A stretch of DNA of 56,140 nucleotides from a virus: the IMG/VR virus record IMGVR_UViG_3300045988_093457, positions 1 through 56,140 of that record; one strand, written 5' to 3'. The notes under the pieces were generated by a model. It was given only the letters and a program-made list of their open reading frames with translations, did no database searches and was not told where the DNA came from. Shown piece by piece: positions 51,968 through 54,875 of this stretch. The translations under genes and the position numbers were made by a program. Within the stretch, counting starts at the first letter, position 1. Every line of letters starts with the position of its first letter.

Positions 51968-52120
51968 TTATTTGTACAGCAACTTGTACCATGACTTGTA
52001 CAAAGTCTTGCCGTAGATTGTTGCAAACCACGCAAAAGCTATAACTAACGCCGTTGCATCACCTGTCATGCAGGTGTGCATGAATGCTGCTACGTTGGCA
52101 GCGATAACTAACTTTTTCAT
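51968..52120 (-). CDS. 50-aa hydrophobic peptide P1 (paralog of 53616-53768)
   Basis: Hand-translated as MKKLVIAANVAAFMHTCMTGDATALVIAFAWFATIYGKTLYKSWYKLLYK. Confidence 0.55.
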   Translation of the reverse strand: MKKLVIAANVAAFMHTCMTGDATALVIAFAWFATIYGKTLYKSWYKLLYK

Positions 52121-52150
52121 ATATATTGTTTTTTGTTTTCCAATTTAAAG

Positions 52151-52174
52151 CCGGTGAACCTCACGGCGGACCGG
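52151..52174 (-). other. Conserved-loop hairpin, copy A
   Basis: CCGGT-GAACCTCACGGCGG-ACCGG. A T-rich run follows on the minus strand. Confidence 0.6.
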
Positions 52175-52225
52175 GGATTGAGCGTCCTAAATGCTCCATT
52201 TTAAAATGATTAAAGTAAATTATAG

Positions 52226-52290
52226 CAGGATATGCAAGATTCGAACTTGCATAGGTGCGTCCACCTGTTTTACCGTTGAACTAATATCCT
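52226..52290 (-). tRNA. tRNA-like gene 1: only 65 nt, with a truncated anticodon arm
   Basis: Acceptor AGGATAT/ATATCCT, D-arm GTT-CAACGGTAA-AAC and T-arm GCAAG-TTCGAAT-CTTGC. The middle is AGGTG-GACG-CACCT, a 4-nt loop. Confidence 0.5.
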
Positions 52291-52328
52291 CCAGTTGTCT
52301 TTCCAACTTGTCTTATCTGCACAGATAG

Positions 52329-52442
52329 TGGCGAAAGCAGGATTCGAACCTGCAAGGACTTACAAAGGTTTTACCGCGGTCTCAACCTAATGCCATTCCT
52401 TCCTTTTGGTTGGAATACGTTTACCAATTTCGTCATTTCGCC
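52329..52442 (-). tRNA. tRNA-like gene 2: 114 nt, with no canonical anticodon arm
   Basis: Acceptor GGCGAAA/TTTCGCC, D-arm ACG-AAATTGGTAAA-CGT and T-arm GCAGG-TTCGAAT-CCTGC. 62 nt lie between the D and T arms. Confidence 0.55.
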
Positions 52443-52445
52443 AGA

Positions 52446-52463
52446 TACCCACCGAAGTGGGTA
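52446..52463 (-). other. cUUCGg tetraloop hairpin 3 nt upstream of tRNA-like gene 2
   Basis: Minus strand reads TACCCAC-TTCG-GTGGGTA. Confidence 0.6.
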
Positions 52464-52660
52464 CTACTAATCACACTATTACAACGAAATAATCTTGTTT
52501 AAAAAATATGTTATTTAACTCTGTTTTTATGATTTTAAATTAATTCAAACGCTGATTATAAAATATTGATATTCAGCGGTCCGTCACGTGTGAAATATGT
52601 TTGCATCGTTAAAATTTTAGTTATTAATAATTAGGCTTTCGCCTGTTTGGTCTCGTAAAA

Positions 52661-52688
52661 ACTTCGGGAACTTCACAGCGGCCGAAGT
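52661..52688 (-). other. Conserved-loop hairpin, copy B
   Basis: ACTTCGG-GAACTTCACAGCGG-CCGAAGT. TTTTAC follows on the minus strand. Confidence 0.6.
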
Positions 52689-52752
52689 GTGCAATGAAAA
52701 ATTTACAAAAAGAAAATTCTTCAACTGTTGTTATGTCATCATCTTGTTAGCG

Positions 52753-52860
52753 TGGTGCCGGCAGGATTCGAACCTGCATGAGCTTTCTGCTTTGAGTAAC
52801 CCTTCCGGCTGGGTAAAGCTCCAGTACTCGTCGCGCGTCTACCAATTCCGCCACGACACC
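52753..52860 (-). tRNA. tRNA-like gene 3: 108 nt, type-II (Leu/Ser-like) D-arm, no canonical anticodon arm
   Basis: Acceptor GGTGTCG/CGGCACC, D region GGCGGAATTGGTAGACGCG (as in bacterial tRNA-Leu) and T-arm GCAGG-TTCGAAT-CCTGC. 57 nt lie between them. Confidence 0.55.
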
Positions 52861-52933
52861 GAAACCGGAGAGCTTCGCAGTGGCCCGGGTGGTCATATAA
52901 AGATTTTCAGTTCATAATTTGAGAATTTAAAAA

Positions 52934-52957
52934 TGCACGAGCCTCACGGCGGGTGCA
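52934..52957 (-). other. Conserved-loop hairpin, copy C
   Basis: TGCAC-GAGCCTCACGGCGG-GTGCA. TTTTTAAATT follows on the minus strand. Confidence 0.6.
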
Positions 52958-53352
52958 GGTGTATAGAAAAAAACATCTAGGTGAATAGCACCGCTGTGCT
53001 TTAAGTCAAACTAAACATGAAAAACACTTAACTGATCTTAGTGCCGGCGCCCGATTCCATCGCAGCCAATTTAATGACAGCGCCGGCTATATGTAGTTAT
53101 GGTAAATTATAACTAATGTTCTTCCAAAATATATAGCCCCTACTCGCGTCCTCGCTGCCGTGTCATAGATTGTCAGTCTCTACAGCAGCTTCGCTTTCGT
53201 CTTTTGTCCCATAATGTCAAAGATCTATTTTCCAAAGTCTACCCTTGCGGCTTACGCGTCAAATGACATTGCGCTTCGGAACTTCGTAGTGGTGCCGCCG
53301 CTCTCGCTGCGTGATGCGAGCCTTCAACTCTCCCGGCACCTGATTAAAATGG

Positions 53353-53664
53353 CTAAAAGTAATCTTGCATTATATGTTGGGCTTCTCTAAGCTCCTTCAT
53401 GAAGTATTCAACCTTTCCGGGGCGCTTGCACGGATGCAGCTTGCCTTCTCTGCGCCAGCGGTCCACATTGCCGCGGCCAAACATCTTGTAGGCCTTTCGC
53501 TGACTTATCATCTCAGGATCAGCGGCCTGTTCTTTTAGCTGTCTGACGACTTCAGCGGCGATGTCTTTAACGAGGACTTCGTAAGAAACCGTGCAGTCAG
53601 GAAAGTTTATTGCGTTCATCTGTTGAAATGTCTTATCCAGGTTCTGTACAAATCTTTCCAGCAT
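53353..53664 (-). CDS. Excisionase/MerR-like HTH protein
   Basis: ISQRKAYKMFGRGNVDRWRREGKLHP. Confidence 0.5.
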   Translation of the reverse strand: MLERFVQNLDKTFQQMNAINFPDCTVSYEVLVKDIAAEVVRQLKEQAADPEMISQRKAYKMFGRGNVDRWRREGKLHPCKRPGKVEYFMKELREAQHIMQDYF

Positions 53665-53858: not shown

Positions 53859-54080
53859 TTACATAAATCTATTTTCTTCAATCTCTATCCCCCCGAAGTT
53901 GTCGAGGGCATCTTTTCTTATCTCCTGTGCTCTATGGCTGTTGCTGCTATATTTCAGTGCAGCGTAGACAGTTACCTTCGAGCATTTATGCAGTGTGGCC
54001 AGCTTACTTATATCTTCGTAAGCCACCAATATCTTCGGTGTTTTTATAGCTCTTTTTGTTGCTCGTGTCTGTTTTTTCAT
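53859..54080 (-). CDS. Cro-like small HTH regulator
   Basis: ISKLATLHKCSKVTVYAALK. Divergent from the repressor gene. Confidence 0.55.
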   Translation of the reverse strand: MKKQTRATKRAIKTPKILVAYEDISKLATLHKCSKVTVYAALKYSSNSHRAQEIRKDALDNFGGIEIEENRFM

Positions 54081-54132: not shown

Positions 54133-54140
54133 CAAATGTA
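54133..54140 (-). promoter_or_regulatory. -7 box TACATTTG for the leftward early operon
   Basis: Matches TAnnTTTG on the minus strand about 50 nt upstream of the start at 54080. Confidence 0.4.
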
Positions 54141-54224
54141 GAGCATTTTACTGTAATCACAAAATTAAATACAGAAAATATTGCTGTAAATTGTTTATTT
54201 ATACAAATTCTAAATAAGTAAATT

Positions 54225-54875
54225 ATGGAAACATCTGTAAAACAGCGACTTATACAATTTATTAAATACAAAGGTATAGGTCAAGGTAAATTTGAAAAAG
54301 CCGTAGGTTTGTCGAACGGATTTGTAAATAATATCAGAGTATCTATAACGCCTGAAAAATTACAGAAAATAGCTCTGTATTATCCTGAATTAAACAAATC
54401 ATGGTTATTAACAGGTGAAGGCGAAATGTTAAACAACGAAATACAGAAAACGGCAGAAAAAGATTTGCTGTCTGACTACGAAACTTATCTTCTGCCTATG
54501 ACAACTCATGCCGGAGGCCTTAACGAAGTCTCTGCAGACGGAACTCTTCTGCAAAATTGCGAAAAGGTCATATCGCCAATCAAGGGTGTTGACTTTGCAA
54601 TAACGGTGTATGGTGAGAGTATGGCCCCTGAATATCCTTCAGGCTCCAGGCTATTAATAAAGCGCATAGATCCTTCAATATTCATCGACTGGGGCAAGGT
54701 GTTTGTGCTTGATACAAGTAACGGCGTGATTGTAAAAGAAGTGCATACGTGCGAAAAGGAAGGCTATGTCACTTGCCATTCTATAAATCCCGATCCGAAA
54801 TACGCCGATTTTATAGTACCTCTTTCAGAGGTCTACGGTATGTATAGGGTATTAATGTGTTTGTCAGCAAAATAA
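54225..54875 (+). CDS. CI/LexA-type repressor (HTH plus S24 peptidase)
   Basis: N-terminal HTH (QGKFEKAVGLSNGFVNNI) and a C-terminal GESMAPEYPSGSRLLIKR ... VIVKEV Ser/Lys dyad. Confidence 0.8.
   Translation: METSVKQRLIQFIKYKGIGQGKFEKAVGLSNGFVNNIRVSITPEKLQKIALYYPELNKSWLLTGEGEMLNNEIQKTAEKDLLSDYETYLLPMTTHAGGLNEVSADGTLLQNCEKVISPIKGVDFAITVYGESMAPEYPSGSRLLIKRIDPSIFIDWGKVFVLDTSNGVIVKEVHTCEKEGYVTCHSINPDPKYADFIVPLSEVYGMYRVLMCLSAK

Follow-up and report, generated by a model that had tools for sequence, protein, structure and literature searches.

An RNA hairpin family of Bacteroidota and their phages, with a conserved apex on unrelated stems, may provide leaky terminators for tRNA-like cassettes

The window analyzed here is the whole of a 56,140-nt stretch of DNA, the IMG/VR virus record IMGVR_UViG_3300045988_093457, and the elements in question are hairpins clustered at positions 52151-52957, among three tRNA-like genes. 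The hairpins are located in a 1.2-kb non-coding stretch within the early leftward operon of a temperate phage (Table 1). A repressor gene on the plus strand faces small minus-strand open reading frames (ORFs) that are helix-turn-helix-like, and the hairpin-bearing cassettes are found between Cro/Xis-like genes and, downstream of the hairpins, the genes for RecT, a YqaJ-type exonuclease and SSB. In a pattern scan for promoters of the Bacteroides type, the exact −7 boxes (TAnnTTTG) of the minus strand between 51900 and 54400 were all close to the repressor gene (54276, 54167 and 54140); none was present between 52100 and 53400.

Table 1. Coordinates of the hairpins, tRNA-like genes and neighboring features in the window.
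Feature	Position	Strand	Sequence or type	Basis and scores
Hairpin A	52151..52174	−	CCGGU-CCGCCGUGAGGUUC-ACCGG, then CUUUAAAUU	exact core; −11.6 kcal/mol; R1 43.1 bits
Hairpin B	52661..52688	−	ACUUCGG-CCGCUGUGAAGUUC-CCGAAGU, then UUUU	exact core; −12.3 kcal/mol; R1 46.2 bits
Hairpin C	52934..52957	−	UGCAC-CCGCCGUGAGGCUC-GUGCA, then UUUUU	exact core; −12.0 kcal/mol, z −3.6; R1 43.8 bits
Hairpin D	52865..52888	−	CCGGG-CCACUGCGAAGCUC-UCCGG, then UUUC	2-mismatch core; −6.8 kcal/mol; R1 13 bits, E 0.3
tRNA-like 1	52329..52442	−	114 nt; fold with acceptor and T arm	Rfam tRNA 42.6 bits; z −2.2
tRNA-like 2	52226..52290	−	65 nt; folded	Rfam tRNA 41.6 bits
tRNA-like 3	52753..52860	−	108 nt; tRNA-Leu-type acceptor, D arm and T arm, aberrant middle	Rfam tRNA 38.3 bits
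Leader hairpin before tRNA-like 1	52446..52463	−	UUCG-capped	
Leader hairpin before tRNA-like 2	52293..52308	−	AGUUG-GAAAGA-CAACU	
AGCG-type hairpin	52988..52999	−	free stem, conserved AGCG (or AGAG, GGCG) tetraloop	
Acceptor-stem element	53287..53342	−	~55 nt; tRNA-type acceptor stem (GGUGCCG...CGGCACCA) around a hairpin	
ORF downstream of hairpin A	52120..51968		50 aa	
First ORF of the early operon	53859..54080	−	73 aa; starts MKKQTRATKRAIKTPK	only PHROG match is a function-unknown family
cI/S24-type repressor gene	54225..54875	+		PHROGs
Candidate early leftward promoter(s)	54133..54174	−	Bacteroides type (TAnnTTTG, TTTG upstream); faces the repressor gene	pattern scan

An initial annotation, made from the sequence of the window, had described three hairpins (A, B and C) that enclose a nearly invariant 14-nt sequence in unrelated stems. 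All three were present exactly where it had placed them, with perfect and mutually unrelated stems of 5, 7 and 5 bp, respectively. Written as a degenerate 14-mer on the minus strand, CCGCYGTGARGYTC, the shared core had three exact matches, at 52156-69, 52668-81 and 52939-52, as compared with about 0.003 expected by chance in a uniform sequence. When up to two mismatches were allowed, five matches were found in the window, a number reached in none of 100 shuffles, and one of the two 2-mismatch matches was a fourth, degenerate copy, designated D. A search of the 56-kb window with a covariance model (R1), built from the family described below and run with filters off, revealed no further copy; the four copies form one 800-bp cluster on one strand. 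In the minus-strand direction the order is C, 44 nt, D, 4 nt, tRNA-like 3, 64 nt, B, 218 nt, tRNA-like 1, tRNA-like 2, 51 nt and A, followed 30 nt later by the ATG of the 50-aa ORF. The copies thus flank tRNA-like genes on the transcribed strand, as had been proposed; the Rfam tRNA model recovers three such genes, all on the minus strand.

Folding of the four copies gave a common architecture: an outer stem of 5-7 bp, a 2 x 2 internal loop (CC/UC), a 3-bp helix (G:Y, C:G, Y:R) and a tetraloop of the GNRA type, with the minus-strand sequence GUGA, or GCGA in the case of D. The initial annotation had deduced an inner helix of 2 bp with a TCAC cap. The helix exists and covaries, but it comprises 3 bp, and TCAC is the complement of the GUGA loop. 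The T-rich run that had been noted behind every minus-strand hairpin was clear after B (TTTT) and C (TTTTT), whereas it was weak after A (CTTTAAATT) and likewise after D (TTTC). Fold energies of the single sequences were unexceptional (−11.6 to −12.3 kcal/mol for A-C, with z from −0.6 to −3.6), so that the case rests on comparison rather than on thermodynamics.

For this comparison, IMG/VR was scanned with a pattern consisting of the core, N5-7 and TTT, in which all four combinations were permitted at core positions 5 and 10. All counts from the IMG/VR and bacterial genome scans refer to the matches listed and are lower bounds. A perfect flanking stem of at least 5 bp defined membership of the family, and core matches without a stem served as controls. 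At least 132 core matches were found in IMG/VR, 65 of which carried perfect stems of at least 5 bp and up to 9 bp; since outer-stem pairing was the selection criterion, the 98% pairing in this set is not independent evidence. The 56 distinct hairpins showed 40 distinct 5-nt stem arms, and the conserved apex on a free stem is accordingly genuine and family-wide. REP/BIME (repetitive extragenic palindrome/bacterial interspersed mosaic element)- or MITE (miniature inverted-repeat transposable element)-like palindromes were rejected as an explanation, because the stems are unrelated and the window holds only four copies in a single cluster.

The inner pair at core positions 5 and 10, which the pattern left free, was C-G or U-A in all 65 stem-flanked copies. 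The corresponding positions of the stemless matches formed Watson-Crick pairs in only 28 of 67 cases and were non-pairing in the other 39 (Fisher p 1e-15). At 3:12 the pair was G-U in 40 and G-C in 16 of the 56 distinct hairpins; a G:U pair at this position would be A·C on the plus strand, which indicates that the minus strand is the functional one. The covariance-model search that the initial annotation had suggested yielded many further instances, and those found by the model rather than by the pattern in the same loci had GUGA, GCGA or GGGA loops. They included A-U or U-A pairs at 3:12, besides G-U and G-C, a reciprocal exchange of C·U for U·C at 2:13, and a variant, CGUCY-GUGA-RGAUA, in which the internal loop is nearly closed. 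Neutral descent was rejected as the reason for the conserved apex: unpaired and loop bases should then drift faster than stems, yet stems at orthologous sites differ completely, as they do between the window and L003 at the positions of both D and A. The replacement of orthologous stems while the core persists suggests selection on the apex, and this selection would operate at the RNA level.

The family extends beyond phages. Among the matches listed for bacterial genomes, copies with stems of at least 7 bp came from Prevotellaceae (5), Odoribacter, Muribaculaceae, Porphyromonadaceae and Sphingobacterium, and two more copies of this kind lie in short contigs that are unassigned or probably misbinned. 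In BLAST searches with motif-bearing loci, which gave matches to neighboring genes only, genes near the motif resembled those of Riemerella and Bacteroides phages. Among GenBank phages, no relative of the window region was found beyond tRNA-like 3, and use of the start of a small ORF as the query for relatives returned only unrelated phages. R1 detected no motif in BS-TP4, BS-TP2 (first 50 kb), B40-8, Hankyphage or BKO1-TP3 (first 12 kb), and almost none in 80 phage loci with tRNA-Leu-like genes. These cultured phages and tRNA-Leu-like loci rule out the hairpin as a generic Bacteroides-phage terminator or a general companion of phage tRNA genes. Rfam 15 gave no match over the hairpins, even with E up to 5 (52000-53500), and only the three tRNA matches in the window reached the gathering score; full-text literature searches, for the sequence itself and for descriptions of Bacteroides terminators or tRNA-like elements, returned nothing relevant. 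The statement of the initial annotation that no such motif had been described was thus upheld. To judge from the sequence comparisons, the hairpin is a previously undescribed RNA hairpin family of Bacteroidota and their phages.

What follows the stem, and where the hairpins lie relative to genes, bear on the function. In a separate 16-mer scan in which no T was demanded, covering 37 stretches, at least three T residues occurred within 6 nt after the stem in 22 of 24 stem-flanked copies, as compared with 3 of 13 stemless controls. The outer stems are G/C-rich across the family, as seen from an alignment of the stem bases. The nearest upstream gene was co-directional in 50 cases and opposite in 14, and the downstream gene was co-directional in 35 and convergent in 20, although these counts rest on crude gene calls. 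One chromosomal copy (L179) lies between convergent genes, another (L145) stands 47 nt past a 964-aa ORF and has a T8 tail, and a third (L146) follows ORFs of 944 aa and 500 aa, which are SusC/SusD-like by eye from their N-termini only. Three tandem copies occur after a tRNA and before an ORF in each of L079, L120 and L259. The initial annotation had considered a conserved loop on a free stem to be the reverse of what a plain terminator needs. This view was not supported: the real T tail, the upstream co-direction (50 versus 14) and the placement between convergent genes point to terminator-type anatomy and placement. A simple promoter/terminator scanner misses these hairpins because of its loop limit.

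On balance, we lean, with somewhat better than even confidence, toward the explanation that the hairpins are RNA elements of the intrinsic-terminator type, acting from the minus strand and belonging to a Bacteroidota-specific family, which would serve as leaky or conditional stops closing tRNA-like cassettes. At the base of each element would be a G/C-rich stem whose sequence is free, with a short U-run directly behind it, and the top would comprise a tandem pyrimidine mismatch (C·C, C·U), a 3-bp helix and a GNGA tetraloop.

The position of the hairpins within early operons also brings to mind antitermination. According to this alternative, which we regard as decidedly unlikely, a phage or host protein would bind the GNGA mini-helix on the nascent RNA as a recruitment site of the lambda nut/boxB or LoaP UNCG-hairpin type, and transcription would read through into the recombination genes. 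The setting in the window is lambdoid, with a cI-like repressor, a divergent early operon and then RecT, exonuclease and SSB downstream. Across the family, cI-type repressors and integrases are the recurrent neighbors, each in 12 of 40 lineages, so that the family is typically set in the early or lysogeny region of temperate phages of Bacteroidota. Lambda N recognizes GNRA-type folds, and the loops found here are GNRA-like (GUGA, GCGA or GGGA on a 3-bp helix), although they are tetraloops and not a boxB pentaloop. LoaP, for its part, uses a hairpin with a tetraloop (UNCG) (PMC12691694). The first protein of the early operon has an Arg/Lys-rich N-terminus. Against this, we found no boxA-like linear element: nothing outside the stem, core and T-run is conserved in 56-60 aligned instances. 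Moreover, the hairpins have their own U-run and so resemble terminators themselves rather than sites ahead of them, several Bacteroidota families have copies at the ends of ordinary chromosomal genes, and PHROGs and Pfam revealed no N, Q or NusG-paralogue signature in the neighboring ORFs.

With regard to the first early protein itself, its N-terminus bears a faint likeness to the arm with which lambda N binds RNA, and the remainder is helix-turn-helix-like by eye, with no support from Pfam. A second type of hairpin, with a free stem and the AGCG-type tetraloop, is found in the window and approximately 45-60 nt upstream of core hairpins in L026, L045, L049, L052, L059, L079, L222, L040 and L003. 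The loop and 3' arm of this second type look like antisense to the 5' half of the core. Antiterminator pairing between the 5' part of the core and the AGCGG loop of the upstream hairpin was considered and rejected, as no covariation was seen by eye across lineages.

The association with tRNA-like genes is a feature of the whole family. A tRNA or tRNA-like gene was located within 300 nt of 29 of the 65 stem-flanked copies, as compared with 3 of the 67 controls. All 29 tRNA-linked copies were co-oriented with the gene, the hairpin being upstream in 21 and downstream in 8, at distances down to 5 nt. In the window, ARAGORN found no tRNA, and only the Rfam tRNA model detects the three genes, all of which are aberrant in the middle part, whereas their acceptor stem, D arm and T arm are normal. 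A stretch of Bacteroides phage BS-TP2 matches tRNA-like 3 with 96% identity. The scaffold of tRNA-like 3, GGTRTCGTGGCGGAATTGGTAGACGC ... ATGCAGGTTCGAATCCTGCCGRYACCA, recurs across phage contigs (including L003 3411-3564 and L265-L383) with the middle replaced by at least seven unrelated inserts of about 50-100 nt, and two relatives of the window, L003 and L393, differ essentially only in this insert. By its sequence, tRNA-like 3 looks like a natural tRNA scaffold with swappable cargo. In tRNA-like 2, the anticodon arm is closed by a 4-nt loop (GGUG-GACG-CACC), and the molecule cannot, therefore, decode.

Several further observations concern these genes and their surroundings. In many lineages, a stable hairpin stands 2-5 nt ahead of the 5' end of each tRNA-like gene and carries either the core motif or a loop of GAAAGA or UUCG; both loop types occur in the window, where the spacing is 2-4 nt. 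The GAAAGA loop, on other stems, precedes homologues of tRNA-like 3 in BS-TP2 and many IMG/VR contigs, and a leader hairpin is present also at about 3112-3128 of L001. The acceptor-stem element, which lies directly after a 103-aa ORF, occurs once in the window and twice in L003 (2811-2866 and 6479-6534), the second copy standing where the window has 380 unrelated bases. At a syntenic position in a cultured phage, Bacteroides phage BKO1-TP3 (L395), between a homologue of the 103-aa ORF and RecT, we found an unannotated mini tRNA-like element of about 60 nt (~1139-1199) with an acceptor stem and T arm and without a core hairpin. Positions 3300-3600 of L079, between two tRNA-like genes, contain approximately 300 nt of G+C-rich, structured-looking non-coding sequence with an ordinary terminator at its end. 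In L052, L106 and L117, tRNAs near core hairpins have 4-base anticodons (ctgg, ccga and gagg) in ARAGORN, that is, 8-nt anticodon loops.

The relatives of the window reveal how hairpins and tRNA-like genes are gained and lost together. A locus search based on RecT led to a single relative, and three were compared in all: L003, from IMG/VR, in which RecT is 99% identical at the protein level and DNA identity is about 93%, and the metagenome contigs L393 and L394. The site of hairpin D, 4 nt before tRNA-like 3, is degenerate in the window, with a CCGGG stem, whereas all three relatives have a canonical hairpin there, CUUCAG-CCGCCGUGAGGCUC-CUGAAG. Past tRNA-like 3 comes hairpin B in the window but only one hairpin, on a third stem (CCCAGU/ACUGGG), in L003 and L393, where the 50-aa ORF follows. 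In L394, an extra tRNA-like gene begins directly after hairpin B, and a spacer and the CCCAGU hairpin come next; the flank ACGAGACCAAACAGG, which follows B in the window, follows the CCCAGU hairpin in L394. The block of tRNA-like 1, tRNA-like 2 and hairpin A is present in the window and in L394, where hairpin A is identical, and absent from L003 and L393, which carry a hairpin with a different stem at the position of A. Copy C is part of an insertion of about 37 nt after a T-run (8 nt, the hairpin and T5), and no copy occurs there in L003, L393 or L394. These comparisons indicate that the unit gained or lost is a tRNA-like gene with its spacer, hairpin and T-run, inserted right after the T-run of the preceding hairpin. 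The early leftward operon would accordingly contain a stack of small cassettes, each formed by a tRNA-like gene, spacer, hairpin and U-run, with the hairpin marking the 3' end.

One possible explanation for these boundaries is a DNA-level one: cassettes would recombine or insert at the hairpin or where it meets the T-run, in the manner of integron attC sites or of class C group II introns, which insert after terminators. The cassettes start exactly past the T-run of the previous hairpin and end with a hairpin and T-run of their own; one and the same right-hand flank is found behind B in the window and behind a differently stemmed hairpin in L394; the insertion that carries copy C lies after a T-run; and the phage encodes RecT and an exonuclease. 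An ssDNA signal had been among the suggestions of the initial annotation, next to a nut/boxB-like antitermination site and a processing site. However, G:U pairing and an orientation that strictly follows that of the genes favor an RNA element over a DNA element, as do isolated single copies at chromosomal gene ends, which point to selection at the RNA level. No integrase or reverse transcriptase was consistently adjacent beyond the normal phage integrase, and the T-run boundaries may simply be the sole places that tolerate insertions. We consider a DNA-level role very improbable. Integron attC sites were rejected specifically, given that there is no inverse core site, that the 3' junctions are G-TTTTC/A and not GTTRRRY, and that the integrase recurring nearby is of the ordinary phage kind (IntI was not specifically tested).

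The terminator explanation has difficulties of its own. In at least 16 copies, A and D among them, only 4-51 nt separate the hairpin from a gene or tRNA-like gene of the same direction; many copies are 9-51 nt ahead of the next start codon, and D (in the window and L003-type genomes) and B (in L394) abut the 5' end of a tRNA-like gene at about 4 nt. Because no promoter lies between the hairpins and the next genes, an efficient terminator would silence the genes behind it. The U-runs are short (3-5) and, as noted above, weak after A and D. The two main haplotypes of the apex, C-G and U-A, could represent propagated copies, which limits the count of independent compensatory events. Furthermore, the search with R1 showed that other terminator-like hairpins in the window do without the apex module. 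A plain terminator needs no conserved apex, and the module is missing from the other terminators of the window, from four cultured Bacteroides phages and, almost completely, from the 80 loci; this suggests that something more specific than termination is involved.

The close spacing could also be accounted for if the hairpins punctuate RNA processing or stability. RNase P and RNase Z would cut the early transcript at the tRNA-like structures, the hairpins would be sites for an endoribonuclease or RNA-binding protein, or blocks to exonucleases that set and shield the fragment ends, and termination would be incidental. In agreement with this, hairpins lie 4-50 nt ahead of tRNA or tRNA-like 5' ends or start codons with no promoter between, a stable hairpin precedes each tRNA-like gene closely in many lineages, and a conserved apex on a free stem is typical of hairpins recognized by proteins. 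On the other hand, the consistent U-run and the convergent chromosomal placement are terminator features that processing does not need, the duplex (10-14 bp; 8-12 pairs broken by the 2 x 2 loop) is too short for RNase III, and no candidate nuclease was found beside the hairpins by PHROGs and Pfam searches of neighboring ORFs. Processing punctuation appears unlikely.

We prefer the reading of the hairpins as terminators, with the qualification that the absence of a Bacteroides-type promoter between them and the genes behind, and the distance of only 4-30 nt from some of them to the next gene, imply that any termination or attenuation is leaky or conditional rather than complete. The apex may have been conserved as a nucleus that folds fast enough for a basal stem of 5 bp to suffice, or because a conserved host factor from the transcription or RNA-decay machinery, such as NusA, makes contact with it. 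A bolder proposal, which we put forward as a doubtful one, is that the apex is a docking site for a Bacteroidota or phage factor that toggles between termination and read-through or processing. The apex and T-run would then form the 3' end of mobile cassettes delimited at the RNA level, extending from the RNase P-type 5' end of a tRNA-like scaffold, with swappable cargo in its middle, to the U-run, and inserting right after another terminator. If this were true, gut phages would have a new, modular means to express and exchange small structured RNAs.

Bacteroidota have unusual promoters and do not rely on Shine-Dalgarno sequences. To our knowledge, little is known of how transcription ends and is regulated in Bacteroidota and their phages, which are without Hfq and ProQ. 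An apex under sequence selection across Bacteroidota families and many phage lineages suggests a lineage-specific partner or mechanism. The motif is, in addition, a practical marker for loci that have escaped annotation: arrays of tRNA-like scaffold RNAs that carry interchangeable inserts and lie in early regions of temperate gut phages. These tRNA-like arrays, which escape standard tRNA finders and phage annotations, are a second lead, possibly more unusual than the hairpin itself.

In comparison with known systems, the family shares with intrinsic terminators the G/C-rich stem and U-run, a stable tetraloop, the location after co-directional or between convergent genes and occasional tandem copies. 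It differs from them in that the 14-nt apical module is conserved over unrelated stems and across Bacteroidota, that the U-runs are short, that many copies stand just before promoterless genes, and that terminators of the same genome lack the module. Like the boxB site of lambda nut, bound by N, and the leader hairpin of the NusG paralogue LoaP, the family presents a small hairpin with a GNRA-type or otherwise stable tetraloop in the early operon of temperate phages, with a loop conserved beyond the need of folding. However, it has a true tetraloop rather than a pentaloop, stems that vary even within one phage, an attached U-run and copies at chromosomal gene ends, and neither a boxA nor an N- or LoaP-like protein was found with it. 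The RNase III hairpins of the T7 early region, which remain as 3' stabilizers, are likewise intergenic, have a conserved internal loop and punctuate a polycistronic early transcript. An RNase III site needs about two helical turns (~20 bp) of double-stranded RNA, whereas the duplex of the present family falls short of this, its conserved part includes the loop, and it is linked to tRNA-like genes. Finally, the promoter-early stem-loop (PeSL) modules of T4-type phages and the boundary or linker sequences of lambdoid phages are, similarly, short conserved repeats that edge small variable cassettes gained and lost among close relatives. Compared with these, the present family shares only about 14 nt and the T-run, has no promoter in the repeat, and borders cassettes that carry tRNA-like RNAs instead of small ORFs.

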